From an uncultured Bryobacterales bacterium (GTDB lineage Bacteria > Acidobacteriota > Terriglobia > Bryobacterales > UBA6623), in assembly GCA_958295955.1 (NCBI GenBank), contig OY282420.1, positions 4,233,063-4,297,062 of the forward strand: a stretch of DNA of 64,000 nucleotides, read 5' to 3'. Shown here piece by piece: positions 5,270 to 60,265 of the stretch (position 1 is its first letter; the number at the start of each line of letters is the position of its first letter). A program made the position numbers and the translations under genes. The notes below the pieces were generated by a model. That model was not told where the DNA came from. It did no database searches and saw nothing but the letters and a program-made list of their open reading frames with translations.

Positions 5270-5273
<4 letters not shown>

Positions 5274-7149: not shown

Positions 7150-7386
7150 ATGAAGTTTTCCGGTCTGTTGATCGAAGCGATTCGCAATGCCGAGATTCCC
7201 TTGCGCTTCGAGCCCGGCGCTGAGGAATCCGTCGCCGAGCCGGTGATCGAGCTCTTGAAGGCGTGGGTGGCGATCCATGACCCCGAGCGGCCGTCCGGCG
7301 ACTTCGAATACGGGCAAAAAGCGCTGGTCGTCAAGCTGCTGGAAGAATTGGACGACCGCATCGACTTGCCGGTGACGGACGCGTGA
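7150..7386 (+). CDS. Small acidic hypothetical protein (78 aa)
   Basis: ORF 7090-7386 with ATG at 7150 (MKFSGLLIEAIRNAEIPLRFEPG...). Codon usage is consistent with its neighbours. No motif recognised. Confidence 0.4.
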   Translation: MKFSGLLIEAIRNAEIPLRFEPGAEESVAEPVIELLKAWVAIHDPERPSGDFEYGQKALVVKLLEELDDRIDLPVTDA

Positions 7387-7409
7387 TAACCTGGAAAACC
7401 GGAGTCCCC

Positions 7410-8786: not shown

Positions 8787-9395
8787 TTATTTCAAAGAGA
8801 AGGCGGCTTCCGCAACCGTTTTCTCCCAGATCAACCAGAGCTTGCCGCTCGTCTTGGTCATGTTCGTGAACGCGATGGTGAATTGCTCGCAGGACACGGG
8901 CAAGCTGCCGACAGCCATCTTGACGCGCAAGACATCCTTGTCGGCGGTGTACTCGTAGGCGCCCCAAAGCCCTTCGCCCGGAGCCCGGAAGCTGTCTTTG
9001 GCGGCGTGAGTCGAGAAGATCAGCGTCCAATTGTCTTCCTTCAGATCGACGAACATGCTGTATTCGCCCGCCGGCAGGAGCTTATCGCCGAACATGAGGT
9101 CCGCTTCGGTCATGAAGCGAGTCGATTGGTTCGCTCCGGCGCGCCAGACCGGCGCTCCGGCGTTGGCCGCCTTGCCGTAGGAGTCGCCCGCGCCGAAAAT
9201 GCCGCTGCGCCCGCGCAAGATGGGCCGGCCGTAGTCCACGGTAATCCAGTGGCCGCCTACGTATCTGCGCCCTTCGTACTCGCCGCCCAGTTGGACGGCG
9301 GCCTCGCCCCGGGGCGACGCGGGCCGCTGCGCTTCGGCCGCGCCGGCGCCGATCAGGAAAGCGGCGGAAAGCGCCAGGAAGTTCAGAGAACGCAT
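8787..9395 (-). CDS. DUF2911 family secreted protein
   Basis: Signal peptide MRSLNFLALSAAFLIGAGAAEAQ. Body WRAGANQSTRF...LPAGEYSMFV...WTLIFS matches my memory of DUF2911. AAGGAGGAA Shine-Dalgarno lies before ATG (complement 9393-9395). Confidence 0.75.
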   Translation of the reverse strand: MRSLNFLALSAAFLIGAGAAEAQRPASPRGEAAVQLGGEYEGRRYVGGHWITVDYGRPILRGRSGIFGAGDSYGKAANAGAPVWRAGANQSTRFMTEADLMFGDKLLPAGEYSMFVDLKEDNWTLIFSTHAAKDSFRAPGEGLWGAYEYTADKDVLRVKMAVGSLPVSCEQFTIAFTNMTKTSGKLWLIWEKTVAEAAFSLK

Positions 9396-9554
9396 GGGAG
9401 TTCCTCCTTGCTTGGCATGATTCCAGTTCAGGCTATCAGATTTGGCCGCCGCCGCGGTCTGTTTTTCGGTCGAACCGGCGCAGACCTCCCGGTTCGCCCT
9501 CAGCCATTCGAGCAAGGCTGCGCAATCCCTTTCGCGAAATTACGAGCGGGTTCG

Positions 9555-11039
9555 TCAGCGGCCTGCGCGCCGGTCAACCCCGAAATACCGCTGCAGCAAG
9601 TCCTCGGGCTCGGGAGAGCCGAGACGGGAGCCGAGCCCGCAGGCGAGCGCACAGATGCCCAGCGACCAGACGAACGGGTCGAAACCGTAAAAGCTGCGCG
9701 TTCCGAACAGCGCGTATTGGAGCAGGAACGAGGAGAATCCGGCGGCAATGCCCGCCAGGCAGCCGGTGCGGTTCATGCCGGGCCAATAGACCCCGAGGAC
9801 GATCGGCATGAGGAACGTCGCCGCCAGCCCGGTTCCCGAGAAGACGACGATGTATTGCAGATAGTCGGGTGGCCGCAAGGCGAATATCACGGCAACCGCG
9901 GCCACGGCGAAGGTCGCCATATGGGTCAGGCGCCGGGTCGCGCTCTCTTGCAACTTCCGATTTATGTTTCGTTGGTAAAGGTCTCGAACCAAAGCGCTTG
10001 ACGAGACCAAAAGAAACGAGCTGACGGTTGACATGATCGCCGCCAGCGGCGCGGCCAGCACGAATCCGGCCAACAGCGGAGGGACCGCCGCCAGGATCGT
10101 CGCCGGCAAGGCGTGATCCGGAGCGGCCAGATTCGGAACCAGCACGCGCCCCGCGATGCCGACGAAAATAACCGCCGGGTACAGCAGCAGGATATAGCAG
10201 CCGATGAGAAAAGAAGCCCGTCTGAGCGCGGCGGTATCGCGGCAGGCCAGAAAGCGCGTGATCAGCGCAGGCTGGCCGGCGACGGCCAGCGGCCATATGA
10301 AGAAAAACGAGATCGCCGCGGGCAGAGGCAAGAAGTTGTCCGGCCCCGGCCCGGAGAGAAGTTCCGGCGACTGCGCGGCCAAGCCGTCGAACACGCCCGC
10401 GAATCCGCCGGCCTTGCGCAAGGCGAATCCCGCCGTGAGCAGCACTCCGGCCAGCATGACGATTGCCTGGAAGCTGTCCGTCCAGGCGACTGCGCGGAAG
10501 CCGCCGTACGCCGTGTACAGGCAGACCGTCAAGGCCAAGCCTGTCGCCCCCCAGACGTAGGGGACGCCGAGCACGACTTCGAGCACCCGCGCGCCGGCGA
10601 TGTACTGGGCGACGATGAAGCTGGTGTGCAGAACGATCAGGGCGATTCCCGAGATCACGCCGATCGCCCGGCTGTCGAAGCGGTCGCGCAGCAGATCGGA
10701 GAAGGTCAAGGCGGAGGATGTTTGGCCGATTTCGGCGATTCTTCGTCCCAACAGGCCGAAGCCCACGGTCGCCACGACGATGTAGCCGGAAATCCACAGC
10801 ATGACCGACCAGCCGTTGGCGTGCCCCAGCGAGGGAGCGCCGATAAAGGTGCCGCCGCTCGCCGACGTGGCGATCCAGGTGAGACCCAGCACCCAGGAGC
10901 CGAGCGTGCGGCCGCCGACGAAGAATTCTTCGAGGAAGTTCCCGCTCCCCGCCCGTCTGTGAGCCAGATGAGCCAAGGCAAACGTGATCGCCAGATACAG
11001 GCAGAAAGCCGCCCAGACGGTCGAATTCGCCGTGTGCAT
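9555..11039 (-). CDS. Sodium:solute symporter family transporter (PanF-like)
   Basis: 494 aa with about 13 TM helices. N-terminal FLEEFFVGGRTLGSWVLGLTWIATSASGGTFIGAPS is typical of SSF/PanF. It sits immediately downstream of a YhdT-like small membrane gene, as panF does in other bacteria. Confidence 0.85.
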   Translation of the reverse strand: MHTANSTVWAAFCLYLAITFALAHLAHRRAGSGNFLEEFFVGGRTLGSWVLGLTWIATSASGGTFIGAPSLGHANGWSVMLWISGYIVVATVGFGLLGRRIAEIGQTSSALTFSDLLRDRFDSRAIGVISGIALIVLHTSFIVAQYIAGARVLEVVLGVPYVWGATGLALTVCLYTAYGGFRAVAWTDSFQAIVMLAGVLLTAGFALRKAGGFAGVFDGLAAQSPELLSGPGPDNFLPLPAAISFFFIWPLAVAGQPALITRFLACRDTAALRRASFLIGCYILLLYPAVIFVGIAGRVLVPNLAAPDHALPATILAAVPPLLAGFVLAAPLAAIMSTVSSFLLVSSSALVRDLYQRNINRKLQESATRRLTHMATFAVAAVAVIFALRPPDYLQYIVVFSGTGLAATFLMPIVLGVYWPGMNRTGCLAGIAAGFSSFLLQYALFGTRSFYGFDPFVWSLGICALACGLGSRLGSPEPEDLLQRYFGVDRRAGR

Positions 11040-11054
11040 TTTTCCCCCGCCGCC

Positions 11055-11294
11055 TTATCCGCGCCGGCGTCCGAAGTACAAGGAAAACCAGACGTGTACG
11101 AAAAAAAAGACGATCCAGGGCGCGAACACGCCGAGCGCGGTCCAGCGGGGAATGCCCCACAGGCTTGCGGTCGCGGATTCGCCGTAGCCGAGCGCGTACG
11201 ACAGGCCGACGGTCGTTGCCAGCGCCGCCGCCCAGATCAGAACCGCGGCAACCGCCTCGCGGCGGGCATGGCGATAATCGGGAGGACTGCCCAA
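11055..11294 (-). CDS. YhdT-like (DUF997) small membrane protein
   Basis: 79 aa, two TM helices (AVAAVLIWAAALATTVG, ALGVFAPWIVFFFVHVWF). Its position directly upstream of the SSF symporter supports the call. TTG start is uncertain. Confidence 0.55.
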   Translation of the reverse strand: MGSPPDYRHARREAVAAVLIWAAALATTVGLSYALGYGESATASLWGIPRWTALGVFAPWIVFFFVHVWFSLYFGRRRG

Positions 11295-11318
11295 GAAGGA
11301 CTCCGGTCGGGGGGGGGC

Positions 11319-12311
11319 TTACTCGTCGAAGGCCGCGTCGAAGGCGCGTCCCGAGGGCGCGAAGTCCACGTCCTTGGTGAACGCGCAGGCTTCCGCGGCG
11401 CCGGCTTCGCGCTCCATGCCGCTGTCTTCCCACTCGATCGAGAGCGGGCCGTGGTAGCCGATGTGGTTCAACGCGCGGATGATTTCTTCGAAGTCCACGC
11501 CGCCGTGTCCGAGGGAGCGGAAGTCCCAGCCGCGATTCTGATGTCCGAAATTGAGATGCGAGGCCAGAATGCCGCTCTTGCCGTCGAGTTGAAGCGCAGC
11601 ATCTTTCATATGAACATGATAGATGCGATCCTTGAACTCGCGGATGAACATCACCGGATCGACCTGTTGCCAGTGCAGGTGGCTGGGGTCGAAGTTGAAG
11701 CCGAAAGCTTCGCGTCCGCCGACGGCGTCGATCGCGCGTTGGGCCGTGTAGATGTCGAAAGCGATTTCCGTCGGATGCACTTCCAGCGCGAAACGCACGC
11801 CGCATTCGTCGTAAACGTCGAGGATCGGGTGGAACATTTCGGCGAAGTAGGCGAAGCCTTCGTCGATCGTCGCGTCCGACACGGGAGGAAAGCTGTAGAG
11901 CAGATGCCAGATCGACGAGCCGGTAAAGCCGGGCGTCACCTCGAGTCCCAGGTTCTTTGCGGCGCGCGCCGTGTTCTTGAGCGCTTCGACGGCCCAGGCG
12001 CGTTTTTTCTCGGCGTCTCCGGCGCACTCGGGCGGCGCGAAGCCGTCGGAGCGGGAGTCGTCGTTGGGGTCGCAGACCAGTTGTCCTGCGAGGTGGTTCG
12101 AGATGGCGAAAAGCTTTAGGCCGTGCCTGTCGAGGATCGCTTTCTGCCGGGCGCAGTAGTTGCTATCTTGCGCCGCCTGGAAAACGTCCATGTGGTCGCC
12201 CCAACAGGCGAGCTCCAGGCCGTCGTAGCCCCACGAGGCCGCTTTCTCGGCCAGGACTTCGAGGGGTAAATCAGCCCATTGGCCGGTGAACAGGGTGACC
12301 GGTCTTGCCAT
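11319..12311 (-). CDS. Sugar phosphate isomerase/epimerase (xylose-isomerase-like TIM barrel)
   Basis: 330 aa. Contains [31 protein letters not shown] and SIEWED, matching my memory of the AP_endonuc_2/TIM-barrel family. AAGGAG precedes the ATG. Confidence 0.85.
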
Positions 12312-33968: not shown

Positions 33969-34006
33969 AGAGCCGCGAATCAGGAAGAACAGGGGGGAGA
34001 AGCGGC

Positions 34007-34837
34007 GTGTCCCGTTCCGACCATTACGAGGTATATGCGATCAAGTATGCGGAGTGCATCGCGCGCACGCGCAGGCAATCGTTCATTTTCGACGACGCGC
34101 ACGACGCGCCCCACGATATGGACTATTTCATCTGGGTCGTGCGCAATGCGCAGCGGACGATCCTGGTCGATACCGGATTCGACGGCGCGGAAGGCGCGCG
34201 GCGCGGGCGGCGGGTCATCCTCGAGCCGGCCGCGGCGGCGGCCCGCATCGGCATCGCGCCCGATGCCGTGGACACGGCGATTATCACCCATCTGCATTAC
34301 GATCACGCGGGCGGGCTGGAGCAGTTTCCGAACGCCCGCTTGCACCTGCAGGAGGCCGAGATGGTTTACGCGACCGGCCCCTGCATGCGCCACGACGTTT
34401 TGCGCAAGCCGTTTACGGCCGAGCACGTCTGCCGCATGGTGCGGCGCGTATATGCCGGCGGCGTGGTTTTTCACGACGGCGATGCGGAGGTCGCGCCCGG
34501 GGTCAGCGTCCACAAGGTCGGCGGACACAGCCGCGGCTTGCAGGTCGTCCGCGTCGAAACGGAGCGGGGGCCGCTGGCGCTGGCGTCGGACGCGGCTCAC
34601 TATTACGAAAACTACGAAGCGCGGAATCCGTTTCCCCTGGTTGTCGATGTCGAAGACATGCTCAAGGGGTACGACGTGTTGACGCGGCTGGCGGGCGATA
34701 GGCGCTTGGTGATTCCCGGCCACGACCCGCTCGTGCGCCGAAGATTTCCCGCGGCTTTCGAGGGCGCGGGCGTGGACGTAAGGCGCCTGGATTTGGGGCC
34801 CGTCCGCCAAGCTGCCGGTCCGCCGGAGGAATCGTGA
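34007..34837 (+). CDS. MBL-fold metallo-hydrolase (N-acyl-homoserine-lactonase-like)
   Basis: ILVDTGF...ITHLHYDHAGG...HKVGGHSRG...IPGHDP are the metallo-beta-lactamase metal ligands. Start chosen at GTG 34007 behind GGGGGGAGAAG; TTG 33965 is possible. Confidence 0.8.
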   Translation: MSRSDHYEVYAIKYAECIARTRRQSFIFDDAHDAPHDMDYFIWVVRNAQRTILVDTGFDGAEGARRGRRVILEPAAAAARIGIAPDAVDTAIITHLHYDHAGGLEQFPNARLHLQEAEMVYATGPCMRHDVLRKPFTAEHVCRMVRRVYAGGVVFHDGDAEVAPGVSVHKVGGHSRGLQVVRVETERGPLALASDAAHYYENYEARNPFPLVVDVEDMLKGYDVLTRLAGDRRLVIPGHDPLVRRRFPAAFEGAGVDVRRLDLGPVRQAAGPPEES

Positions 34838-34891
34838 TACGCTTACAGCCGTAAACAGGCGGGGGGCGGCCGGCCGGCGAGGCGAAATCCA

Positions 34892-36067
34892 ATGCGCATT
34901 TTTTTGACATCCGCGATTTTCTTGCTGCTTGCGGTTCCCGGGGCCGCGGCGGCGGACCATGAACACGTTCTGCTCTGGCCCGACGGCGCGCCCGGCGCGC
35001 AGGGGGACGAAGCCGTCGACCGGCCGGCGCTGACCGTTCATCTCGCCGCGCCGGAGAACAACACGGGCGCGGCGGTCATCGTCAATCCGGGAGGCGGATA
35101 CCGCATTCTCGCCTCCGACCACGAAGGCTTGCAGGTCGCGCGCCGGCTGAATTCCGCCGGCATCAACGCTTTTGTCCTGCGCTACCGCTTGCAGCCGAAG
35201 TACGAACCGTCGTTCGCGCTGCTCGACGCACAGCGCGCCGTGCGTTATGTCCGCTCGCGGGCGCGGGAGCTCGGCGTCGATCCGAACCGTATCGGCATGC
35301 TCGGGTTCTCGGCGGGCGGACACCTGACCACCGCGGCGGGGACGGCGTTCGATGACGGCGATCCCGAGGCGGACGATCCGCTCGAGCGCGTCAGCTCCCG
35401 GCCCGACTTTCTGGCGCCGATCTATGCGGCGGTGTCGGGGAAGCTGCTGCGCGGGAACCCGCGAGCGTATCACGATACGGACGTCAAGGTGACCGCGGCG
35501 ACTCCGCCGGCGTTCCTTGTGCATACCCATACCGACCCGACGGTGACGCCCAAGCACAGCCTCGCTTTTTACCAGGCGCTGCTCGACGCGGGCGTCTCCG
35601 CCGAGATGCATATCTTCGCCTTCGGCCCGCACGGCACGGGACTCGCGCCGGGCGACCCCGACCTCGGACAATGGCCCGCATTGCTGCGCGGCTGGCTGCG
35701 CCGACAGGGATTCCTGACCGCCGCCGAGCGCGCGGAGGTCAGCGGCGCCGTGCTGCTCGACGGGGAACCGCTCTACTGGGGCTGGCTCACGCTGCTGCCG
35801 GAAAACGAGAACAACCCGCCGGCAACGGCCTATATGGGCCGGCGGAACGGGGGGAAGTTCAAGATCGAGGCCGCCGTCGGGCCGAGCGTCGGGCGTCACC
35901 GCGTGGAGGTGCATCGCGTCGCTACGGATTTCTCGGCTCCGGCGAGCGGCTCGTATTCACTGGAAAATGCCGAAAAATTCACCAAAAAATCGCCAGCGGG
36001 AGGCGGTCTCTTCGTGCAAATCGCGCCCGGAGTCAACGAGATAACGATAGAAATTGCCACCGAATAG
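34892..36067 (+). CDS. Secreted alpha/beta hydrolase (esterase) with extra C-terminal beta-sandwich-like domain
   Basis: Signal peptide, VIVNPGGGY, nucleophile elbow GFSAGGH, and a late H in PHGTGL. The last ~110 aa were not recognised. Confidence 0.8.
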   Translation: MRIFLTSAIFLLLAVPGAAAADHEHVLLWPDGAPGAQGDEAVDRPALTVHLAAPENNTGAAVIVNPGGGYRILASDHEGLQVARRLNSAGINAFVLRYRLQPKYEPSFALLDAQRAVRYVRSRARELGVDPNRIGMLGFSAGGHLTTAAGTAFDDGDPEADDPLERVSSRPDFLAPIYAAVSGKLLRGNPRAYHDTDVKVTAATPPAFLVHTHTDPTVTPKHSLAFYQALLDAGVSAEMHIFAFGPHGTGLAPGDPDLGQWPALLRGWLRRQGFLTAAERAEVSGAVLLDGEPLYWGWLTLLPENENNPPATAYMGRRNGGKFKIEAAVGPSVGRHRVEVHRVATDFSAPASGSYSLENAEKFTKKSPAGGGLFVQIAPGVNEITIEIATE

Positions 36068-38921: not shown

Positions 38922-39179
38922 GCGAAATTTTTCCATGCGAAGTCGGAGATCGTCTGGTCGCGGATAAACTGAACGCCTTATTCAGCCTGAATGACTGTTT
39001 CAATGACAGCCGTTGTCTTCGTGGGCCGGGAGACGCATTGCGGACGGCAGGTTTCCGCGTTCATGCGCGCGCGTACGGTTTCCACTCGGCCGGCGCGCGC
39101 ATCTCGATGCTGTTCCCGTGCTGCGGAGGCATCGAACCGGCGCCGCCCCTGCCCACGCGCATTTGAGGAGATTCCATGA

Positions 39180-40937
39180 ATGCCAATCCTACCCCCCCCC
39201 CCCCCCCCGCACAGCACGGTTGGCGTCTTTGGTTACCTCTGCTTGTGTCTGAACGTATTTTTCTTTAGCGCTCTCCTCGCTGCCGACCCGTGGATATTCA
39301 AGGCGCTGACCAGGGAAGACTACTGGGTGGAGAATCTCACCGCGGTCTGGTTTCTCCTGGCGGGCCTCTTGTTGTTCGTCACGGCCCGGGCGGAGCGGAG
39401 CTTCTTGCGGCGCTGCGTCTATATTCTCGGCGGCATGGCGATGGTCTTTGCCGCCGGCGAAGAAATCAGTTGGGGGCAGCGCATCTTCGGGTTTGCCACG
39501 CCCGATTTCTTGATGCCCTTGAATGCGCAGAAAGAATTCAATGTCCACAATATCAGCTACGGAACGTTTGACAGCATCTACAGGAATGGCGCGCTGATCC
39601 TGTGTATGGTAACCAGCGCGGCTTTCTTCTGTCGGAAAGACAGGCTTTGGGGGATTCCATTGCCGTCAATCCTGCTGATGCTGGGCTTTCTGCTATTACT
39701 TTCCTATGACTCAAGATTTGACCTCAGAGAATTCGTAGGATTTGGGGTTTTTAAGTTCTTGGGATTTATTGTTTTTAAGGAGAAGGGGCTGCTTCTTCTC
39801 TTGCTCATCTTCGCGTTGCTTTCAGGCCAAGTCAAATGGGTCGTTGCTCCCGCTGCAACCTTGGCGCTCGTTTTGGCTCTCTCCTATGTGAACTATCATA
39901 ATGTGTACTTCCATGGCCGCGCCCATCTTGGAAGCCTGTGGGAGGTGCGCGAGTATCTGTTCGGCATGGGCTGTCTTTTCTATTGTTTGGAACTCTTGCC
40001 GCCTCAGGGACGGTTAGCGGCAATCTCACGGACGTCATTCAGCGGCCTGAAGCTGCCGGGCGGACGGATTCCGTTTTGGATGATGACCTGCCGGCTGGTA
40101 ATTGCAGGCAGTATCGGGTTGATGTTTTTTGGGCATTTCAGCGCCATGTCCAGACCTGCCGCCTTCAAGGAGGCATACCGGTCAATCACGGCCAGCGAAC
40201 CGGCGGTCCGCTCCTACTTTGACGTATATCTCAGCGAGAACGAGTTGATCTACGTCAAGGAGCCATGCGCCCGCGCCGACACGGAGCCGGTGTTCTTCCT
40301 GCACCTATACCCGGTTGACGCGAACGACCTTCCCGAGCATCGCCGGCAATACAGCTTCGACAACCTGGACTTCGGTTTCGAAAGCCGCGGCACGATATTC
40401 GACAAGAGATGTATGGCGAGAGTCCCTCTCCCTGAGTATGATATTGCCCGCATCGGCGCCGGCCAGTACGTACACGTGGAAGGCGGTTACAACAACCTCT
40501 GGGAGGTGGAGTTCCGCCTTGATGACGGTGTCGCTCTGATTGTGAACGCCAAAGAGTCCCGCGAAGCGGCGCTCCGTTCTTACTACGAGACGTTAGTATC
40601 CGGCGAACCCGTAATGCGCTCCGACTTTGACGTATATCTCAGCGAAAACACGCTGACCTACGTCAAGGAGCCGTGCGCCTCGGCCGACACGGAGGCGTTG
40701 TTCTTTCTGCATCTGCGCCCGGTTGACGTGAACGACCTTCCCGACGATCGCAAGAAGAACGGCTTCGAAAACCGGGACTTCGATTTCGGCTGGCGCGGCA
40801 TGAGGCTTGGCGGGAGATGTATGGCGAGAATCCCTCTCCCGGAGTATGCTATTGCCCGCATCTCCACCGGCCAGTTCGTGACCGTGGAAGGCGGTTACAA
40901 CCACCTCTGGGAAGCGGAGATACACCTTGAACGGTAA
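39180..40937 (+). CDS. Orphan polytopic membrane protein (~10 TM) with C-terminal tandem-repeat soluble domain
   Basis: 585 aa. GAGGAG lies at 39165-39170. The N-terminal half is hydrophobic helices and includes AAGEEISWGQRIFGF. The C-terminal half is two ~136-aa repeats. Family not recognised. GC is visibly lower than the flanks. Confidence 0.7.
   Translation: MPILPPPPPPHSTVGVFGYLCLCLNVFFFSALLAADPWIFKALTREDYWVENLTAVWFLLAGLLLFVTARAERSFLRRCVYILGGMAMVFAAGEEISWGQRIFGFATPDFLMPLNAQKEFNVHNISYGTFDSIYRNGALILCMVTSAAFFCRKDRLWGIPLPSILLMLGFLLLLSYDSRFDLREFVGFGVFKFLGFIVFKEKGLLLLLLIFALLSGQVKWVVAPAATLALVLALSYVNYHNVYFHGRAHLGSLWEVREYLFGMGCLFYCLELLPPQGRLAAISRTSFSGLKLPGGRIPFWMMTCRLVIAGSIGLMFFGHFSAMSRPAAFKEAYRSITASEPAVRSYFDVYLSENELIYVKEPCARADTEPVFFLHLYPVDANDLPEHRRQYSFDNLDFGFESRGTIFDKRCMARVPLPEYDIARIGAGQYVHVEGGYNNLWEVEFRLDDGVALIVNAKESREAALRSYYETLVSGEPVMRSDFDVYLSENTLTYVKEPCASADTEALFFLHLRPVDVNDLPDDRKKNGFENRDFDFGWRGMRLGGRCMARIPLPEYAIARISTGQFVTVEGGYNHLWEAEIHLER
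39192..39208. repeat. Homopolymeric C17 tract
   Basis: Counted directly: 'a' followed by 9 C (39192-39200) and 8 C (39201-39208), then 'gc'. It lies in codons 5-10 of the 39180 ORF. Confidence 0.95.
40158..40937 (+). repeat. Tandem direct repeat, period 408 nt (two copies), coding
   Basis: TTTGACGTATATCTCAGCGA occurs at 40218 and 40626. Long stretches are identical between the copies (CTACGTCAAGGAGCC, GAGATGTATGGCGAGA, GTGGAAGGCGGTTACAAC), about 80% identity by eye. Confidence 0.85.
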
Positions 40938-41058
40938 CGACCTGCCCGGCCGGTGCAAGCAGCACGGTTTCGACAACCATAACTTCAACTTTTGGACGCA
41001 CGGCGGGAGAGGAGTCGAGACATGCCTGGCGGCAGTCCCTTTCCCTGGAAAACTTCAA
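40931..41058 (+). pseudogene. Decayed partial third copy of the repeat unit, out of frame, after the stop codon
   Basis: Translation of ORF 40927-41259 begins NGNDLPGRCKQHGFDNHNFNFWTHGGRGVETCLAAVPFPG. This aligns with repeat residues VDVNDLPDDRKKNGFENRDFDFGWRGMRLGGRCMARIPLPE. It is in a different frame from the 39180 ORF. Confidence 0.6.
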
Positions 41059-41249
41059 ATAAAATGCAACGAAATTGCACATAAAATGAAACGCCTCGCG
41101 CCCGCGGCGTTGGTTTTTACCTTCCTGGCGGGTCGGCGCCGTCGCCGCGATTTCCACCGGCCTCGGCGCCGGCGGGTGAATCGAATCGGCATGGCTCGGT
41201 TTTCAATAGGTGGAGTCCGTGGAGCGCAGCATCGGCAATCGGCGGTCTT

Positions 41250-52786: not shown

Positions 52787-55700
52787 TTGTTGAAACTCAT
52801 AGCGCTGCAACTCACTCTTGCCTCGTTGCTGTTCGGGGCGCCGTCTCGCGACAAGCCCGTCGATTTCCAGAAGGACGTGCGGCCGACCCTGTCGGATCAG
52901 TGCTTCGCCTGTCACGGGCCCGATGAGAAGGCCCGCCAGGCCGGTCTGCGGCTGGACACGCGCGACGGCGCGTTCGCCGACCGCGGCGGCTACCGCGTGA
53001 TCGTTCCCGGCAACGCCGCCGCGAGCAGGCTGTACCGGCGCATCAGCCACGTCGATGAAACGGCGCGCATGCCGCCGCCGACGGCCGACCGCCGCCCCGG
53101 ACCGGAGCAGATCGAGACGATTCGCCGCTGGATCGATCAAGGCGCCGAATGGCGGACCCATTGGGCGTATGAGCCGCTCGACGGCAGCGGCGGCAGTTCC
53201 ATCGACGAGTTCGTCCGCGCCCGGCTTGGCGAAGAAGATCTGGCGCCCTCGCCCGAGGCGGACAAACGCACCCTGCTGCGCCGCCTGAGCTTCGATCTCA
53301 CCGGCCTGCCGCCCGACCCCGAGGATGTCGCCGCCTTTCTCGACGACCGTTCTCCTGAAGCCTATGAAAAGCAGGTCGACCGTCTGTTGCGCTCGCGGCG
53401 CTACGGCGAGCGCATGGCGCTGGAATGGCTCGACCTGGCGCGTTACGCCGATACGCACGGCTACCACATCGACAGCCGCCGCGAGATGTGGCCTTGGCGC
53501 GATTGGGTGATTCGCGCCTTCAACGAAAACAAGCCGTTCGACGAGTTCACCGTCGAGCAGATCGCGGGCGACCTGTTGCCCGATCCGACCCGCGATCAAC
53601 TCATTGCCACGGGCTTCAATCGCAACCACATGATCAACTTCGAGGGCGGCGCGATTCCCGAGGAGTACCACGTCGAGTACGTGATCGACCGCGTCGAGAC
53701 GGTATCGACCGTATGGATGGCGATGACGATGGGCTGCGCCCGCTGCCACGACCATAAATACGACCCCGTCAAGCAGCGGGAATTTTATGAGTTCTATGCG
53801 TTTTTCAACTCCATAGACGAAAAAGGTCTGGACGGCTCCACCGGCAACGCCGCGCCGGTACTGCCTCTTCCGGGGAAGGCGCAGGCGGAGCGGATCGACG
53901 AGCTCAAGGCGGCGATTCGCAGCGTCGAAGCCGACCTCCCGGCCGCGCGGATCGATCGGCAGGTCCGCGACTGGGAGCGCTTCGCGCGGGAGTCAATCCC
54001 GCGGGCCGCGCGGGAAGGTCTGGAAGGCCACTACGAAATGGAGGGCGGCTTTGCCGACTCCTCGGGCGGTTACCGCCACGGCCGCGTCATGCGCGGCGAG
54101 CCTCTCTTTCGAAAAGGCAACGCCGGGCTTGCCGCGAGCTTCGATATCGATACCCACGTCGTTTTCGACGGAACCGCCGCCGTGGACCTGTCGCAGCCGT
54201 TTACCGCCGCCTTCTGGATGCGCCCTGCGGGGCAAGTCGCCAAGCCGATTCTGCACAAAATGGACGATGCGCAGTCGGGGCGCGGCCTCGCCATCGCGCT
54301 GACCCGCCCGCAACCCATCCCCGACGCCCTGCGCAACGACTACGACATGATCGTCCGCCTGGCGTCTTCGCCCGAAGACGCGATTGTCGTCCAAACGAAA
54401 GAACCGCTGCACTCCGGCAAGGCTTACGCCGGCCTCTACCACGTCGCGCTTTCTTACGACGGTTCCGGAAAAGCCGGCGGCATTACGCTGCGCTTCAACG
54501 GCAAGCCGGCCGAGACAACGGTTCGTGAAGACTCGCTGCGCGGCTCGCCGCACGTCGAACGGCCCTTCGAAATCGGCGCCGGGCGCTTCGGCGGCCGCTA
54601 CACGGGCGCGCTGGACGACCTGCGCATCTATTCGCGCATGCTGACTGACCCCGAGATCGAGACGATCCGCGTCCACGAGCCGATTCGCGCGCTGCTGGCC
54701 GAGCCCTACGTCGCTTGCGCGGAGATTCTCGCAAACGCGCCGCCGCCGCCGGAGGACGATGTTTACGGAGCGAAGCCCGACAAGACCGTAAGCGAATGCA
54801 AAGCGAGAAAAGCCCGCCTGAAAGAATACTATCTGACTTATGCCGCGCCTGCATCCGAGCGGGCTCTCTACGCCCGTCTGCAAGCCTTGAACCGCGAGAA
54901 GAAGGCGCTGGAGAAGAAAATCCCCAACCTGATGGTGATGCGCGAGCTCAAGCAGCCGCGCGAGACGTTCATGCTGGGGCGGGGCGACTACCGCAACCGC
55001 GGCCGCAAGGTTGCGGCGAAGACCCCTTCGTGGCTGCCGCCGTTTCCGGACGGCGCTCCGCGCAACCGGCTGGGACTCGCCCGCTGGCTGGTCAGCCCCG
55101 ATCATCCGTTGACCGCGCGCGTGGCCGTCAACCGCTACTGGCAGATGCTGTTCGGTCAGGGCCTGGTGAAAACTTCGGAGGATTTCGGCTCGCAGGGAGA
55201 GACCCCTACCCATCCCGCATTGCTCGATTGGCTGGCGTCCGATTTCGCCGGCAACGGATGGGACATCAAGCGGCTCGTCAAGCAGATCGTCATGTCCGCG
55301 ACCTACCGGCAGGATTCGCGGTTGACGCCGGAGTTGCGCGAGCGCGACCCGGAAAACCGCCTGCTGGCCCGCGGCGCCCGCTACCGGCTTCCGGCCGAGT
55401 TTGTCCGCGACAACGCGCTGGCGGTTTCCGGGCTGTTGAACGACGCAATCGGGGGGCCGAGCGTGTTCCCCTATCAACCGGGCGGCATCTGGAAAGAGTT
55501 GGCCTACGGCGGTATGTTCACGGCTCAGGTTTACCGCCCCGACAGCGGCGCCGATCTCTATCGGCGAAGCCTCTACACCTTTTGGAAGCGCACGGTCCCG
55601 CCGCCGTCGCTGGGCGCTTTCGACGCTCCCGACCGCGAGAAGTGCATCGCGCGCCGCGCGCGGACCAACACGCCGCTCCAGGCGCTGGTGCTGATGAACG

Positions 55701-56017
55701 ACCCGACCTATGTCGAAGCATCCCGGGCGCTTGCCCAGAAGACGATCCTCGAGGGCGGACGCAGCCCGGTCGAGCGCATCCGTTACGCCTACCTGCGCGC
55801 CTTGGCCCGCGAGCCGAGCGCGGAAGAAACGCGCCTGCTCAGCGAGCTGTCCCGAGTCGAACGCGGCAAATTCCGCAAAGACCCCGAGCGGGCCGCGCGG
55901 CTTTTGGCAGTCGGCGATTCGGCTCGCGACCAACGGATCGCGCCCGACGAGCTGGCTGCATGGACCGCCGTCGCCGGCAGCATCCTCAATTTCGACGAAA
56001 CCATCAGCAAGGAGTAG
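52787..56017 (+). CDS. PSCyt1 (planctomycete cytochrome c) - DUF1549 - LamG-like - DUF1553 protein
   Basis: N-terminal FQKDVRPTLSDQCFACHGPDEKARQAGLRLD (single CxxCH). DUF1549-like DLARYADTHGYHIDSRREMWPWRDWVI and CARCHDHKYDP. Central LamG-like FTAAFWMRP...LDDLRIYSRML. The DUF1553-like C-terminus includes NRYWQMLFGQGLV. TTG start. Confidence 0.85.
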   Translation: MLKLIALQLTLASLLFGAPSRDKPVDFQKDVRPTLSDQCFACHGPDEKARQAGLRLDTRDGAFADRGGYRVIVPGNAAASRLYRRISHVDETARMPPPTADRRPGPEQIETIRRWIDQGAEWRTHWAYEPLDGSGGSSIDEFVRARLGEEDLAPSPEADKRTLLRRLSFDLTGLPPDPEDVAAFLDDRSPEAYEKQVDRLLRSRRYGERMALEWLDLARYADTHGYHIDSRREMWPWRDWVIRAFNENKPFDEFTVEQIAGDLLPDPTRDQLIATGFNRNHMINFEGGAIPEEYHVEYVIDRVETVSTVWMAMTMGCARCHDHKYDPVKQREFYEFYAFFNSIDEKGLDGSTGNAAPVLPLPGKAQAERIDELKAAIRSVEADLPAARIDRQVRDWERFARESIPRAAREGLEGHYEMEGGFADSSGGYRHGRVMRGEPLFRKGNAGLAASFDIDTHVVFDGTAAVDLSQPFTAAFWMRPAGQVAKPILHKMDDAQSGRGLAIALTRPQPIPDALRNDYDMIVRLASSPEDAIVVQTKEPLHSGKAYAGLYHVALSYDGSGKAGGITLRFNGKPAETTVREDSLRGSPHVERPFEIGAGRFGGRYTGALDDLRIYSRMLTDPEIETIRVHEPIRALLAEPYVACAEILANAPPPPEDDVYGAKPDKTVSECKARKARLKEYYLTYAAPASERALYARLQALNREKKALEKKIPNLMVMRELKQPRETFMLGRGDYRNRGRKVAAKTPSWLPPFPDGAPRNRLGLARWLVSPDHPLTARVAVNRYWQMLFGQGLVKTSEDFGSQGETPTHPALLDWLASDFAGNGWDIKRLVKQIVMSATYRQDSRLTPELRERDPENRLLARGARYRLPAEFVRDNALAVSGLLNDAIGGPSVFPYQPGGIWKELAYGGMFTAQVYRPDSGADLYRRSLYTFWKRTVPPPSLGAFDAPDREKCIARRARTNTPLQALVLMNDPTYVEASRALAQKTILEGGRSPVERIRYAYLRALAREPSAEETRLLSELSRVERGKFRKDPERAARLLAVGDSARDQRIAPDELAAWTAVAGSILNFDETISKE

Positions 56018-56024
56018 CGGCGCA

Positions 56025-57503
56025 ATGGACCCCCATCTCGAATACGAGCTTGCCGCCACGCGCCGCCAATTTTTCGGGCGGTCCGCAACGGGCATCGGCG
56101 CCGCGGCGCTTGCCTCGCTGCTCCAGCGGGACGGTTACGCCGCGCCCGCCGCGCCCCATGCCGAAACCGGGGGAGCCGAAACCGGCGGCTTGGCCGGCCT
56201 GCCGCACTTCGCGCCGCGGGCCAAGCGAGTCGTCTTTCTGTTCCAGTCCGGCGCGCCGTCGCAGATCGACCTGTTCGATTACAAGCCGCAACTGCGCAAG
56301 TTCCACAAGCAGGAGCTTCCCGACTCGATCCGCAGGGGGCAGCGCATCACCGGCATGACCGCGGGACAGGACAGCTTTCCGGTCGCCGCTTCGATCTTCA
56401 AGTTCCAGCGGCACGGCCGGAGCGGCGCCTGGCTCAGCGAGTTGCTCCCGCACACTGCCAAGATCGTCGACGACATCGCCCTGATCAAGACGATGCAGAC
56501 CGACGCCATCAACCACGACCCGGCGATCACCTTCATCAACAGCGGTTTTCAGCAGCCCGGACGCCCGTCGATGGGCGCCTGGGTGAGTTACGGCCTGGGG
56601 ACCGAGAACCAGGACTTGCCGGCTTTCGTCGTGCTCGTCTCTCAGGGCAGCAATAAAAACGCCGCGCAAGGAATCTTTTCGCGGCTGTGGGGGCCGGGGT
56701 TTCTGCCGTCGCGCTACCAGGGCGTCAAGTTCCGCTCGAGCGGAGATCCGGTGCTCTATCTGTCGAATCCGCCCGGCATGGCGGCCTCGACGCGGCGCAA
56801 CATCATCGACGTGGTGGCGCAGGTCAACCGCATGCGCGCCGAGCGGTTCGGCGACCCCGAAATCGAAACGCGCATCGCGCAGTACGAAATGGCCTACCGC
56901 ATGCAGACGTCGGTGCCCGAGCTGATGGATCTCGCCGGCGAGCCCGAGAGCACGTTCGCGCTCTACGGCGAGGACGCCCGCCGGCCCGGCAGCTACGCGG
57001 CGAACTGCCTGCTGGCGCGCCGCCTCATCGAGCGCGGCGTGCGCTTCGTCCAGCTTTATCACCGCGGCTGGGATCAGCACACCGACCTGCCGCGTGAAAT
57101 CCGCCTGCTGGCCGGCGATACCGACCGCGGCTCGGCGGCGCTCATCCAGGACCTCAAAAAGCGCGGCCTGCTCGAAGATACGCTCGTCGTCTGGGGCGGG
57201 GAATTCGGGCGCACCGTGTATTGCCAAGGCAAGCTCAGCGAGACCAACTACGGCCGCGATCACCACCCGCGCTGTTTCACCATGTGGATGGCCGGCGGCG
57301 GCGTCAAGCCCGGCATCGCCTACGGCGAGACGGACGATTATTCCTACAACGTCGTTGCCGACCCGATGCACGTTTACGACTTGCAGGCCACCATCCTGCA
57401 CTGTCTGGGCATCGATCACAAGAAGCTGACGTTCAAGCACCAAGGGCGGCATTTCCGCCTGACCGACGTTCACGGCAAGGTCGTCGAGCCGCTTCTGGCC
57501 TAG
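56025..57503 (+). CDS. DUF1501 protein (sulfatase-fold, Tat signal)
   Basis: TRRQFFGRSATGIGAAALASLL twin-arginine signal. Contains VVFLFQSGAPSQIDLFDYKP and GGEFGRT...GRDHH typical of DUF1501. Sits immediately downstream of its usual DUF1553 partner. Confidence 0.85.
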   Translation: MDPHLEYELAATRRQFFGRSATGIGAAALASLLQRDGYAAPAAPHAETGGAETGGLAGLPHFAPRAKRVVFLFQSGAPSQIDLFDYKPQLRKFHKQELPDSIRRGQRITGMTAGQDSFPVAASIFKFQRHGRSGAWLSELLPHTAKIVDDIALIKTMQTDAINHDPAITFINSGFQQPGRPSMGAWVSYGLGTENQDLPAFVVLVSQGSNKNAAQGIFSRLWGPGFLPSRYQGVKFRSSGDPVLYLSNPPGMAASTRRNIIDVVAQVNRMRAERFGDPEIETRIAQYEMAYRMQTSVPELMDLAGEPESTFALYGEDARRPGSYAANCLLARRLIERGVRFVQLYHRGWDQHTDLPREIRLLAGDTDRGSAALIQDLKKRGLLEDTLVVWGGEFGRTVYCQGKLSETNYGRDHHPRCFTMWMAGGGVKPGIAYGETDDYSYNVVADPMHVYDLQATILHCLGIDHKKLTFKHQGRHFRLTDVHGKVVEPLLA

Positions 57504-57506
57504 CAG

Positions 57507-57533
57507 GCGCCGGGCAAGGCGCGGAGTCTTTTT
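57507..57533 (+). terminator. Weak hairpin plus T-run after the DUF1501 gene
   Basis: GCGCC-gggcaa-GGCGC followed 6 nt later by TTTTT. The stem is short and the spacer non-ideal. Confidence 0.3.
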
Positions 57534-57550
57534 ATCGAAACGGGGAACCC

Positions 57551-58717
57551 ATGAGCGGCGCTGCAAATATCGAAGACCGCGGGATGACGTTCGGCGTCGA
57601 GGAGGAGTTCTTTCTGATCGACCCGGAGACGCGCGACCTGCTGGCCGATCCCGACCCGCGCATTTTCGAGTCATGCGCCGCGAATTGCGGGCCGCACAAG
57701 GTCGTACACGAGTTCATGCGCTCGCAGATCGAAACGAACACCCGCGTTTGCGATTCGGTGGCCGACGTGCGCGCGGCGCTGGTCGAGACGCGGCGCATCG
57801 TCGCCGACGCGGCGGCCGAGTTCGGCGCGCGCCCGCTGGCTTCCTCCACGCATCCGTTCGCGGCTTGGCGCAGCCAGGTCGTCACGCCGCGCAAACGCTA
57901 CCGGAGCATCGAGATGACCTTGCAGGACGCGGTGCGGCGATTGATCATCGGCGGCATGCATATCCATCTCGGATTCGGCGGCGCCGGTTCCCGCATCCGC
58001 GTCATGACCGCGCTGCGCCGCCATCTTCCCCTGCTGCACGCGCTTTCCGCGTCGTCGCCCTTCAGCGGCGGCCGCGCCACGGGGTTCAAGTCGTACCGCT
58101 TGAACATCTTCGGCGGCCTGCCGCGAACGGGGATGCCCGCCCCGCTGGCGTCGCAGGCCGATTTCGAGCGCGTGGTGGACAACTACCGGCGCATGAATTT
58201 CATAGGCGACAGCAGCGAGTTGTGGTGGGATATCCGCCCGGCCAAGGCGTATCCGACCATCGAGTTGCGCATCTGCGACATCTGCCCCGATCTCGAAGAC
58301 GCGGTGACCATTGCGGCGTTGTACGCCTGTCTCGCGCGGCGTTTGCTGCGCCTCGACCGGCAAGGCGCGCTGCCGCCCGAACCGCCCACGGAGATCATCG
58401 TCGAAAATCGCTGGCTCGCCTCGCGCTACGGGGTTCTCGCCTTCCTGGGCGACGCCGAAAACGGAGGCAGGGTCGATATCGACGACTACGCAAGAAATCT
58501 GGTCGAGGAACTCACCGAGGACGCCCGGGCGCTTCGCTGCGAAACCGAGTTGCGCCGCGTGCTCGACATCGTGCGTCTCGGCTCCGGCGCCGACCGCCAG
58601 ATCGACCACTACCGCCTGCGCCTGCTGGAAGGGGACAGCGAGCAAGAAGCGCTGCGCGCCGTGGTCGATCTTACGGCCGCGGAGACGGTGCAGGCTCTCG
58701 ATGCGCCGCGGCCGTGA
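57551..58717 (+). CDS. Carboxylate-amine ligase, YbdK/GCS2 family
   Basis: MTFGVEEEFFLIDPETRDL...QIETNT...GGMHIHLG...WWDIRP...PTIELRICD is the glutamate-cysteine ligase family 2 pattern. Start is ATG 57551 or 57584. Confidence 0.85.
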   Translation: MSGAANIEDRGMTFGVEEEFFLIDPETRDLLADPDPRIFESCAANCGPHKVVHEFMRSQIETNTRVCDSVADVRAALVETRRIVADAAAEFGARPLASSTHPFAAWRSQVVTPRKRYRSIEMTLQDAVRRLIIGGMHIHLGFGGAGSRIRVMTALRRHLPLLHALSASSPFSGGRATGFKSYRLNIFGGLPRTGMPAPLASQADFERVVDNYRRMNFIGDSSELWWDIRPAKAYPTIELRICDICPDLEDAVTIAALYACLARRLLRLDRQGALPPEPPTEIIVENRWLASRYGVLAFLGDAENGGRVDIDDYARNLVEELTEDARALRCETELRRVLDIVRLGSGADRQIDHYRLRLLEGDSEQEALRAVVDLTAAETVQALDAPRP

Positions 58718-58834
58718 CGCCGCGCTACCGAAGGCGGTTTCCGCGCGGCCCGGCGCGCAAGCCGCGGATCGTTGCTTGCCGGCATCCTTGGAAGTTGCCG
58801 CAACCGCCGGGCGCCGCATGAAAATTTCAAACCG

Positions 58835-60265
58835 ATGATCACTTTCAGAAAGACGAAAATCCTCTGTACGCTGGGGCCGTCCGTTGCGGACGAAGAGACG
58901 TTCCGCAAGCTGGTCGATGCCGGCTTGAACGCAGTGCGCCTGAACTTTTCCCACGGCTCGCGGGAACGGCGCCTTGCGGACATCGAAATGGTGCGCGCCG
59001 TCGCCGCGGAATGCGGCCGGATGATCCCCATCGTCGCCGACTTGCAGGGGCCGAAGATTCGCACCGGCAAGCTCCGCGGGGGCGGGCCGGTCGAGTTGAC
59101 GGCGGGCGCCCCCTTGCGGCTGTGCAAAGCGCCGCGGGTCGGAGACGCGGCCGCGGTTTCGATCGATTATCCGCACTTGGCCGCGGACGTGAAGCCCGGC
59201 GCGAGGGTTTTGCTGGCCGACGGCGCCGTGGAGTTGCGGGTCGCCCGCATCGAGGCCGAGGACGTACACTGCGAAGTCGTCAACGACGGCGTTCTGGGCG
59301 AGCGCAAAGGGGTCAACGTTCCGGGCGCGAAGCTGAAAGTGCAGGCGCTCACCCGGAAAGACCGGGCCGATCTCGAATTCGCCGTCGCCCGGGGCGTGGA
59401 CTACATCGCGTTGTCGTTCGTGCGCGAGGCGAAGGACGTCGAGCTTGCCAAGAATCTGATCGAGTGGGCGGGCGGACATGCGCACGTCATCGCCAAAATC
59501 GAAAGCCCCCAGGCGCTCGACAATCTGGGCGCCATCCTGGACGCCGCCGGCGGCGCGATGGTGGCGCGCGGCGATCTGGGAGTCGAGCTCAGCCCCTGGC
59601 AGGCGCCCATCGCGCAGAAGCGCATCATCGAGGAATGCGCCCGCCTGCGCAAGCCGGTCATCACCGCTACGCAGATGCTGGAGTCGATGATCGCCAGCCC
59701 GCGGCCGACGCGCGCGGAGTCGAGCGACGTGGCCAACGCGGTTTTCGACGGCTCGGACGTGCTGATGCTCTCGGGGGAAACGGCCGTCGGCGCCTATCCG
59801 GTCGAGACCGTGGCGATGATGGCGCGCATCGTTGCCGCCGCGGAGCTGCACGCCGCCGGCCCGCGGCTCGACCTGCCGGCTTTCGCGCGCGACGAGGCCG
59901 ACTATTCGGCGCAAGTCGCGCAGAGCGCAACGCGGCTGGCGCACGATCTCCAGGCCAAGTTCATCGTCGTCTATACGGAAAGCGGTTACTCCGCCCGCCT
60001 CATCTCCAAGCACCGGCCGACTTGTCCGGTGCTGGTTCTCTCGGCGCACGACGAAACTTGCCGCCGAGCGACGCTGCTATGGGGCGTCCGCGCCGGGAAA
60101 ATCGAACCGCAGCGCGACCTCGCCGACCTGCGCAAGGCGATCGATACGCTGGTTACCGGCAACGGCTGGGCGCAGCCGGGAGACCTGCTGTGCATTGTCG
60201 CCGGCGCGCCGTTCGAAATCGCCGGACGCACCAACATGATTCAGCTTCACGCCATCGCAAGCTGA
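58835..60265 (+). CDS. pyk: Pyruvate kinase
   Basis: KTKILCTLGPS...GLNAVRLNFSHG...ADLQGPKIRTG...IAKIESPQALDNL...MVARGDLGVE...ATQMLESM...VLMLSGETAVG. Confidence 0.92.
   Translation: MITFRKTKILCTLGPSVADEETFRKLVDAGLNAVRLNFSHGSRERRLADIEMVRAVAAECGRMIPIVADLQGPKIRTGKLRGGGPVELTAGAPLRLCKAPRVGDAAAVSIDYPHLAADVKPGARVLLADGAVELRVARIEAEDVHCEVVNDGVLGERKGVNVPGAKLKVQALTRKDRADLEFAVARGVDYIALSFVREAKDVELAKNLIEWAGGHAHVIAKIESPQALDNLGAILDAAGGAMVARGDLGVELSPWQAPIAQKRIIEECARLRKPVITATQMLESMIASPRPTRAESSDVANAVFDGSDVLMLSGETAVGAYPVETVAMMARIVAAAELHAAGPRLDLPAFARDEADYSAQVAQSATRLAHDLQAKFIVVYTESGYSARLISKHRPTCPVLVLSAHDETCRRATLLWGVRAGKIEPQRDLADLRKAIDTLVTGNGWAQPGDLLCIVAGAPFEIAGRTNMIQLHAIAS

Follow-up and report, generated by a model that had tools for sequence, protein, structure and literature searches.

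What kind of gene lies behind a run of 17 cytosines in the genome of an uncultured Bryobacterales bacterium, and could that run govern whether the gene is expressed? We analysed a stretch of 64,000 nucleotides (nt) from contig OY282420.1 (assembly GCA_958295955.1, positions 4,233,063 to 4,297,062), referred to below as the window. An open reading frame (ORF) of 585 amino acids (aa) at 39180..40937 on the forward strand is the gene of low guanine-plus-cytosine (GC) content that an earlier note, made from the letters without database searches, had flagged as encoding an unrecognisable membrane protein followed by soluble repeats. With a probability of roughly 0.55, we read it as a member of a horizontally exchanged, phase-variable envelope multigene family that probably modifies a surface glycan.

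The start of the gene is laid out as follows (window coordinates):

39136..39175 (+), 5' cassette (leader), which precedes each copy of a gene array at locus L081 and contains a Shine-Dalgarno-like GAGGAG at 39165-39170

39176..39178 (+), ATG1, the canonical start of the family (MNAN...), close homologs beginning with MNANP...

39180..39182 (+), ATG2, the sole start in frame with the 585-aa ORF when the tract has 17 C

39192..39208 (+), poly-C tract of 17 nt (C17) in the codons of the cytoplasmic N-terminal tail, a candidate slipped-strand switch

The C17 tract begins 12 nt after ATG2 and is the longest homopolymer of the window, in which about 0.0006 runs of at least 17 nt are expected by chance. 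Translation from ATG1 through C17 stops after 30 codons. ATG2, located four bases downstream of ATG1 and 9 nt from GAGGAG, arose by a synonymous change from AAC to AAT (giving ATGAATG); the L081 copies read ATGAACG and have no ATG2. At locus L001, which is 98.2% identical to the window over 6.7 kb, the equivalent site holds C12, which leaves both ATGs out of frame, and the gene was called from an upstream GTG in the third frame. As C17 puts ATG1 out of frame and the ORF survives only via ATG2, the window copy probably represents a state of low or alternative expression.

A homopolymer at this position recurs throughout the family. Among the 51 family copies of loci L001-L037, a homopolymer of C or G, 9-26 nt long and at most 120 nt upstream of the first transmembrane (TM) codon, is present in 31, and 31 of the 41 tracts of at least 9 nt found in 277 kb lie in this 6.1-kb target space, an enrichment of about 140-fold. 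Some lineages have poly-C, read as proline, and others poly-G, read as glycine; the conserved feature is therefore the DNA homopolymer and not the peptide. Tandem paralogs carry tracts of different lengths (C13/C12/C9 in L011, G19/G15 in L016, G9/G10/G13 in L027 and C21/C10 in L020), all lengths in this study being consensus calls from long-read metagenome assemblies, where long homopolymers are error-prone. With the window's own gene added, 32 copies bear a tract; 11 of them are in frame with an upstream ATG, five with GTG or TTG only and 16 with no start, and the downstream ORF is open in all 32. Two runs were found further inside the coding region. One, a C16 at L028:4300-4315, lies in a predicted cytoplasmic loop between the TM domain and the last helix, and the reading frame changes there; the other, a G21 at L033:3193-3213, is in frame (seven glycines) and follows TM2 in a predicted cytoplasmic loop. 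No tracts were observed in the short stand-alone family described below. Length polymorphism and positional enrichment thus fit the switch-like tract of which the earlier note had spoken, and the tract would act by slipped-strand mispairing, its pattern being that of classical contingency loci.

The protein encoded downstream of the tract begins with a membrane domain:

39216..40148 (+), polytopic membrane domain, aa 13-323, about nine TM helices, N-terminus in and C-terminus out

39315..39332 (+), invariant E46, D47 and E51 (REDYWVE) in the first outward-facing loop

39456..39551 (+), AAGEEISWGQRIFGF signature region with invariant columns, at the outer end of TM3 and in the next loop

39942..39953 (+), invariant E255-x-x-E258 at the outer end of TM8

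The AlphaFold model of this domain (predicted local distance difference test, pLDDT, 78.9; predicted template modelling score, pTM, 0.79) and the hydropathy profile agree on about nine helices, in place of the ten counted in the earlier note. The acidic loop that the note had picked out as conserved-looking is indeed the signature of the family, with the layout G93-E-E-I-S-W-G-Q-R101 ... N115-x-Q-x-E-x-x-x-H123-N124. Across 102 members, comprising both short stand-alone and long fused forms, G93, E94, E95, S97, W98, Q100 and R101 of this region are invariant, as are N115, H123 and N124, and with E46, D47, E51, E255 and E258 the invariant positions number 15. Positive-inside signals are present in RAERSFLRR before TM3, in CRKDR after TM4 and in the loop ahead of the last TM helix (aa 273-298; four K/R and no D/E). 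From these loops, all 15 invariant residues are predicted to lie on the outer side of the membrane, and the C-terminal repeats would be outside as well.

Relatives of the membrane domain are numerous. With more than 3,500 hits, nearly all of the named ones being 'hypothetical protein', the TM core also stands alone, as a protein of some 230-260 aa, in bacteria and archaea alike (Pontibacter, Maribellus, Draconibacterium, Adhaeribacter, Cribrihabitans and Microbulbifer, as well as metagenome-assembled genomes, MAGs, of Woesearchaeota and Methanosarcinales). Nevertheless, the word 'unrecognisable' held for curated libraries, although not beyond them, as both halves of the protein belong to large uncharacterised families. 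Searches with hidden Markov models (HMMs) and with AlphaFold models in Foldseek matched neither half to Pfam, NCBIfam, PADLOC or any solved structure. The full protein, a paralog and short homologs gave nothing above sub-threshold noise in Pfam and NCBIfam, and the protein, a paralog and three short homologs had no match among the PADLOC defence models at E <= 0.1. A profile of the 102 members found nothing among PDB sequences, and Foldseek returned no relative of the TM domain among solved structures (best E = 0.1, TM-scores <= 0.30). Pfam searches of the 102 members likewise gave no recurring family; Glucos_trans_II appeared in three members at E = 0.07 or weaker, and some members showed weak sub-threshold matches to Caa3_CtaG.

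The C-terminal part consists of two copies of a module that contains two cysteines (HMM envelopes):

40191..40532 (+), repeat 1, aa 338-451, predicted 2-Cys beta-sandwich with C363 and C411

40599..40934 (+), repeat 2, aa 474-585, with C499 and C547

These are the two repeats of about 136 aa noticed before: their period is 136 aa, and they share 63-64% amino-acid and about 82% DNA identity. The model of the repeat is all-beta with a pLDDT of about 90. Compared with the PDB by Foldseek it gave weak matches to monobody/FN3, antibody and LacZ Ig-like domains (E = 0.03-0.3), and no match was obtained in BFVD. Fusion proteins of the family carry one to four repeats, and elsewhere a protein may hold up to ten. 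We surveyed the phyletic range of the repeat, as had been proposed, by searching its profile against 1.84 billion representatives clustered at 50% identity. The repeat was present in at least 2,112 clusters (1,686 at E <= 1e-10), mostly on PMT-type glycosyltransferases. The 9-TM domain accompanies it in 8 of the 150 top clusters, while most of the other top proteins have a polytopic N-terminus of about 510-590 aa. Among 50 repeat proteins without the 9-TM domain, Pfam identified PMT_2 in 11, PMT in nine, GDSL_2 in two, and arylsulfotransferase and GtrII in one each; no Pfam model covered the repeat itself in these proteins. Such proteins also occur directly beside family genes, as PMT_2 proteins with repeats (the PMT_2 match passing the Pfam threshold in L009 and L034 and falling short of it in L029 and L030) and as single-TM GDSL-like proteins with repeats (L003, L005 and L023). 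These associations suggest that the repeat is a shared extracytoplasmic appendage of outer-face membrane enzymes. The final TM helix is preceded by a positive-inside loop, each repeat has a Cys pair, and the module also stands at the C-termini of PMT-type glycosyltransferases; the repeats are therefore very probably extracytoplasmic, as they had looked to be in the earlier note. The homolog search with the repeat profile also yielded 43 unnamed short fragments, orphan single-repeat ORFs of 65-210 aa (P0390-P0432) on long contigs; the simplest reading is that gene calling broke up frameshifted family genes into these pieces.

At several loci the neighbours of the family gene are enzymes of glycan or carbamoyl transfer. 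In a Thalassobaculaceae MAG, a gene of glycosyltransferase family 2 (GT2; Glycos_transf_2, 66.9 bits; L029:1650-2888) lies directly upstream of the family gene and has its own run of 34 C in its first codons (1714-1747), so that homopolymer gating may not be limited to the studied family in these genomes. A NodU/CmcH-type carbamoyltransferase (Carbam_trans_N, Carbam_trans_C) is found immediately upstream at L002:924-2942 and L015:919-2850, that is, in MAGs of two phyla (Gammaproteobacteria and Nitrospirales), and may form a conserved partnership with the family gene. L008 has a neighbour of glycosyltransferase family 4 (GT4).

From this anatomy we propose how the system might work. The 9-TM domain would present the invariant cluster of acidic, His, Asn and Gln residues (E46/D47/E51, E94/E95...R101, N115...H123/N124 and E255/E258) at the outer face of the cytoplasmic membrane, and the one to four 2-Cys beta-sandwich repeats would project into the periplasm or extracytoplasmic space. 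The C or G homopolymer in the first codons would gate expression, slipped-strand mispairing altering the tract length and thereby moving the gene body in or out of frame with a start codon. The membrane domain would most likely modify, or help to modify, a surface glycoconjugate at the outer face of this membrane, and the repeats would bind or position the glycan acceptor. Tandem paralogs with independent tracts could in this way create combinatorial, reversible surface variety, which might be useful against phage or host recognition. The role in surface glycoconjugates is suggested by the partners of the repeat elsewhere (PMT/PMT_2/GtrII, GDSL/SGNH-like and arylsulfotransferase proteins), by the outward invariant acidic/His cluster and by the GT2, GT4 and carbamoyltransferase neighbours in several loci. 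We take the anatomy, the family relationships and their spread across phyla, the enrichment and polymorphism of the tract and the instability of the array to be established; switching within the population, a catalytic role and a glycan substrate are what we infer from them.

The fusion of TM domain and repeats has more than 619 full-length members after clustering at 90%, none with a Pfam domain or a name, and all 120 members listed come from long contigs in the European Nucleotide Archive (ENA) or NCBI. When GTDB was scanned with one genome per species, all genomes with the fusion were uncultured MAGs bearing UUID isolate names (series OY282, OZ24, CATQH, OY729 and others); they represent about 12 phyla and are labelled as Gammaproteobacteria, Pseudomonadales, Dehalococcoidia, Nitrospirales, Spirochaetia, Latescibacteria, Gemmatimonadota, Binatia, Vicinamibacterales, Caldilineaceae, Thalassobaculaceae and Paracoccaceae. 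These homologs are 40-69% identical to the window protein and often stand in tandem arrays. In a neighbour-joining tree of the TM domains the phyla were fully interleaved; a Pseudomonadales copy paired with a Nitrospirales copy and a Binatia copy with a Vicinamibacterales copy, and clades tracked the accession batch more than taxonomy. The GC content of the family genes ranges from 50 to 67%, mostly below 58%, and that of their flanks from 46 to 70%; the gene lies below its flank in 32 of 37 loci and above it in most of the lowest-GC hosts. The steady gene GC in hosts of varied GC and the interleaving of phyla strongly indicate horizontal transfer at the level of the family. For this genome, by contrast, the earlier suggestion of a recent acquisition failed, as the same site, between two alcohol dehydrogenase (ADH) genes and UbiE with 3-dehydroquinate (DHQ) synthase, is occupied in a 98%-identical genome and in another of roughly 91-96% identity. 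The fusion was absent from the phage records, IMG/VR contigs and plasmids searched, and the short stand-alone family was found on four Roseovarius plasmids. In Joint Genome Institute (JGI) metagenomes the pattern of the 5' cassette was not found, and the best 80 matches contained the short family only and no fusion. The names of the records and the mix of taxa suggest that the host bacteria may be sponge symbionts; a genome note on a high-microbial-abundance sponge lists Poribacteria, Latescibacteria and Binatota, a mix of taxa like that of the fusion hosts (PMC12181767). Literature searches with the accessions and analysis IDs gave no match to a habitat. A search of a paper library found no paper joining phase variation and sponge symbionts.

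The site of the gene varies in copy number between close genomes. Locus L081, which derives from the same ENA analysis as L001, corresponds to the same chromosomal site and holds six tandem family genes (L081:2062-11353; proteins of 584, 449, 451, 440, 449 and 450 aa), whereas the window and L001 hold one each. In L081 the array is flanked by two alcohol dehydrogenase genes on one side and by UbiE, DHQ synthase and a sulfatase on the other. Each of its copies is framed by a common 5' leader and a common 3' cassette, and the six upstream sequences are near-identical; five copies carry tracts of C11, C12, C14, C13 and C17, and the tract of the third copy is shorter and interrupted. In the window, the end of the unit is marked by the following features:

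40938..41071 (+), 3' cassette, which follows every array copy and the L001 gene

41098..41120 (+), terminator-like hairpin with a T-run, a consensus match only, such sites not being above shuffled expectation in the region

The 3' cassette holds a frame-shifted remnant of a repeat (NDLPGRCKQHGFDNHNFNF..., 40921-41046; tblastn E = 5e-6). As the same cassette stands behind each L081 copy, this remnant does not reflect local decay. The segment 37115-41071 of the window, comprising 5' flank, gene and 3' cassette, best matches the flank and copy 1 of L081 (91.4%), and homology of the array unit to copies 2-6 starts at position 39136. Repeat 2 and the downstream flank of the window, in turn, are 96.5% identical to the end of L081 copy 6, whereas identity with the second repeat of copy 1 is 83%. 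Either an array seems to have shrunk, through recombination between repeats, to the one gene present in the window, or the L081 array seems to have expanded from such a gene. Judged by these comparisons, the site is a hotspot of expansion or collapse, and the instability that had been ascribed to the repeats was thus recovered as one copy versus six at the same site, with a chimeric repeat 2.

Ratios of non-synonymous to synonymous substitution rates (dN/dS) among the seven paralogs amounted to 0.41 over aa 14-175, 0.68 in the variable loop, 0.79 over aa 201-325 and 0.70 in the repeat. This indicates a protein that is constrained throughout, with relaxation towards the C-terminus. At this resolution, positive selection among the seven paralogs was not found, dN/dS being below 1 in all regions. 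A rapidly evolving protein, as expected by the earlier note, is therefore found in a relative sense, the repeat showing 3.4 times more non-synonymous change than the N-terminal core, although dN/dS never exceeds 1.

The GC content of the ORF is 56.0% compared with 64.7% for the 64-kb window. Just 0.5% of windows of the same length are equally GC-poor, and the global minimum of the window lies inside the ORF. The estimate of near 50% GC made by eye applies to the gene core, where 300-bp windows at 39.45-39.75 kb fall to 46-48%, and not to the gene as a whole. We partitioned the difference using the codon usage of 27 clearly coding window genes with high GC at third codon positions (GC3; mean GC of these genes 65.6%). 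From its residues alone, the gene would be expected to have 60.2% GC, and 56.1% was observed; about 5.4 of the 9.5 points of deficit thus come from amino-acid composition and about 4.1 from an unusual choice of synonymous codons (z = -3.0). The composition of a membrane protein accordingly accounts for roughly half of the deficit, and the remainder, together with a GC3 of 0.71 against 0.79-0.87 in the adjacent genes, bears out the claim of an atypical composition. As several further long ORFs of the window have a GC3 of 0.62-0.69, below that of the studied gene, the gene is atypical, though not uniquely so.

Some of these ORFs are worth recording in their own right. ORFs of 1,756, 331, 668, 555, 791 and 643 aa, located at 3291-8564 (-), 9006-12119 (+), 56004-60049 (-) and 33980-35914 (-), have no Pfam match at E <= 1e-5; all except the 643-aa one have a GC3 of 0.62-0.69, and they may be other foreign or lineage-specific genes. 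The 668-aa ORF at 10113-12119 (GC3 0.63, no Pfam match) contains the second-longest homopolymer of the window, a G9 at 11309-11317. Elsewhere in the window, one ORF at 52877-56017 combines PSCyt1, PSCyt2 and PSD1 domains (Planctomycete cytochrome-C-type) with Laminin_G_3, and a Ser/Thr kinase with PEGA domains is encoded at 456-2477; both are hints of the lineage to which the host belongs.

Several observations weigh against a phase-variable, glycan-modifying family. The copy in the window is itself out of frame with the canonical start ATG1, and as tract lengths come from assemblies only, it is uncertain for any single copy whether it is ON or OFF. In L081 all six copies read in frame from ATG1, which unbiased random switching would not predict; ON states can evidently dominate. 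The TM domain has no detectable GT-C or other solved fold (Foldseek, PDB profile, Pfam), and the enzymatic role consequently rests on conserved polar residues and guilt by association. The neighbours of the gene in the window are alcohol dehydrogenases, UbiE and DHQ synthase, with no glycan genes among them. The neighbours of the short stand-alone family are heterogeneous, making their context uninformative, and one short-family member (annotated 'hypothetical protein', 66221-66919 of the conjugative Roseovarius indicus plasmid pRIdsm_01, L082) sits in a transposon-rich metal island near two L,D-transpeptidases and a cation-translocating P-type ATPase.

In another reading the switch is real and the function a different one, the 9-TM domain being a transporter, a cation or metal binder or an anchor, and the repeats serving for adhesion, as a receptor or as a decoy that engages phage or host. 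The invariant residues, mostly carboxylates plus one His and including an ExxE pair, would suit cation binding, as would the neighbouring ATPase on the plasmid; the weak Caa3_CtaG matches, the lack of a detected glycosyltransferase fold and the nature of the repeat, apparently a generic Ig/FN3-like sandwich that diverges faster than the core, are also in line with it. We nevertheless consider it unlikely, because the repeat occurs overwhelmingly on outer-face enzymes (PMT/PMT_2, GtrII, GDSL, arylsulfotransferase) and not on transporters or known adhesins, because the strong conservation of outward polar residues across bacteria and archaea is more reminiscent of an active site, and because GT2, GT4 and carbamoyltransferase genes adjoin the family gene in several loci. 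It is also conceivable that the homopolymer is a passive by-product, a tolerated linker in the tail that expands by slippage while the gene is expressed constitutively and the frame differences are mostly assembly errors. The six in-frame copies of L081 and the reliance on assembled lengths would be accounted for in this way, tracts do lie in cytoplasmic tails or loops where runs of Pro or Gly are harmless, and many homologs have interrupted, stabilised versions such as PPAKGLD. A passive run would, however, hardly be enriched roughly 140-fold at one position, nor would C or G tracts of up to 26 nt be kept in a dozen phyla; out-of-frame copies, which make up half of those with a tract, still have downstream ORFs intact for more than 1.2 kb, the glycosyltransferase gene adjoining the L029 copy has its own C34, and pure CCC or GGG runs in place of mixed synonymous codons fit selection for mutability and not for poly-Pro or poly-Gly. 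A passive tract is therefore quite unlikely in our view.

A further explanation concerns the window copy alone, which might be the decaying, non-functional remnant of a collapsed six-gene array, frameshifted from its true start, its low GC reflecting the foreign composition of the family. It takes in the 30-codon peptide read from ATG1, the L001 copy (98% identical, C12) that is out of frame with both ATGs, the chimeric make-up of the gene, whose 5' part resembles L081 copy 1 (91.4%) and whose repeat 2 and flank resemble the end of copy 6 (96.5%), and the repeat remnant downstream. We regard it as very unlikely, since the frame of 585 codons is, the tract aside, fully open in both genomes, ATG2 restores the frame at 9 nt from GAGGAG, the repeat remnant past the stop codon belongs to a conserved cassette that each intact copy has at its 3' side, and a one-step change of the tract brings ATG1 back in frame.

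Comparison with known systems places the proposed phase-variable family near several of them without merging it with any. Contingency genes with homopolymeric tracts encode enzymes that modify surface structures in Campylobacter, Helicobacter, Neisseria and Haemophilus (compare PMC8437040, PMC8355987). As in such genes, a long G or C homopolymer in the 5' coding region differs in length from one close strain or paralog to the next, with a shift of frame, a genome has several genes of this kind, and their likely products act at the cell surface. In contrast to these animal pathogens with small genomes, the present hosts are uncultured environmental or symbiotic bacteria from many phyla, mostly with large and GC-rich genomes; the tract moves together with a horizontally exchanged, undescribed family, and switching is here read from assemblies alone. 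Homopolymer phase variation of an envelope function is thus a known type of mechanism, while the protein family, its sharing across phyla and the ecological setting are new.

The gtr clusters (GtrA/GtrB/GtrC) for O-antigen glucosylation in Salmonella and Shigella are mobile and in some cases phase-variable (Glucos_trans_II, PF14264), and their switching is epigenetic (Dam/OxyR) and not due to homopolymer slippage. They share with the present family a polytopic membrane protein with predicted action at the periplasmic face and horizontal mobility; in L029 and L030 the family gene is flanked on one side by a GT2 (GtrB-like) gene and on the other by a PMT_2-like gene with the same repeats, and one repeat-bearing protein matches GtrII. 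The 9-TM domain, however, matches neither GtrII nor any other GT-C model, and the window locus has no GtrA or GtrB neighbours. GT-C enzymes of the PMT, PMT_2 and ArnT type (PF02366, PF13231) are likewise polytopic with an extracytoplasmic C-terminal domain, many PMT and PMT_2 proteins carry the same 2-Cys module, and the acidic pair E46-D47 in the first, predicted outward, loop may be a further likeness, although this feature alone is not diagnostic. They differ in that no sequence match and no Foldseek match to solved GT-C structures was obtained, and that the stand-alone homologs, at only about 240 aa, are smaller than known GT-C enzymes. O-antigen acetyltransferases of the OafA/OafB type consist of a polytopic acyltransferase domain and a periplasmic SGNH domain. 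The present protein would follow the same plan, a catalytic membrane domain with a periplasmic domain behind it for handling the glycan acceptor, and its repeats recur on SGNH/GDSL-like proteins encoded in the same genomes, but the studied protein has no Acyl_transf_3 or SGNH signature. Finally, automatic UniRef names of two short-family members pointed to CPBP/CAAX proteases (PF02517), which are also small polytopic proteins with a Glu-Glu pair and a His. Such proteases are characterised by the motifs EExxxR, FxxxH and HxxxN/D. The assignment was rejected, as the spacing is EE-x5-R instead of EExxxR, only one His is invariant and PF02517 was detected in none of the 102 members.

Homopolymer phase variation is textbook knowledge for a few small-genome pathogens; here it would occur in a family that crosses phyla of uncultured bacteria, and the bacteria carrying the fusion seem to share one habitat. 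A more far-reaching version of our reading is that the GEEISWGQ 9-TM domain represents an undescribed class of outward-facing membrane enzymes which, fused to an undescribed acceptor-binding module, is shared by co-resident symbionts of a dozen phyla, as a horizontally traded set of homopolymer-switched genes, for reversible surface variation. We put this forward tentatively and hold it to be doubtful as a whole; if true, the biology of contingency loci would be a shared trait of a whole host-associated community and not of single pathogen lineages. Two sizeable families, the membrane domain with more than 3,500 homologs and the 2-Cys repeat with more than 2,000 clusters, stand without a curated model or a solved relative. 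If confirmed, the system would offer a concrete and testable entry to the ways in which symbionts vary their surfaces to counter recognition by phages or hosts, a family that marks gene exchange inside a microbiome, and two new domains to define and solve.

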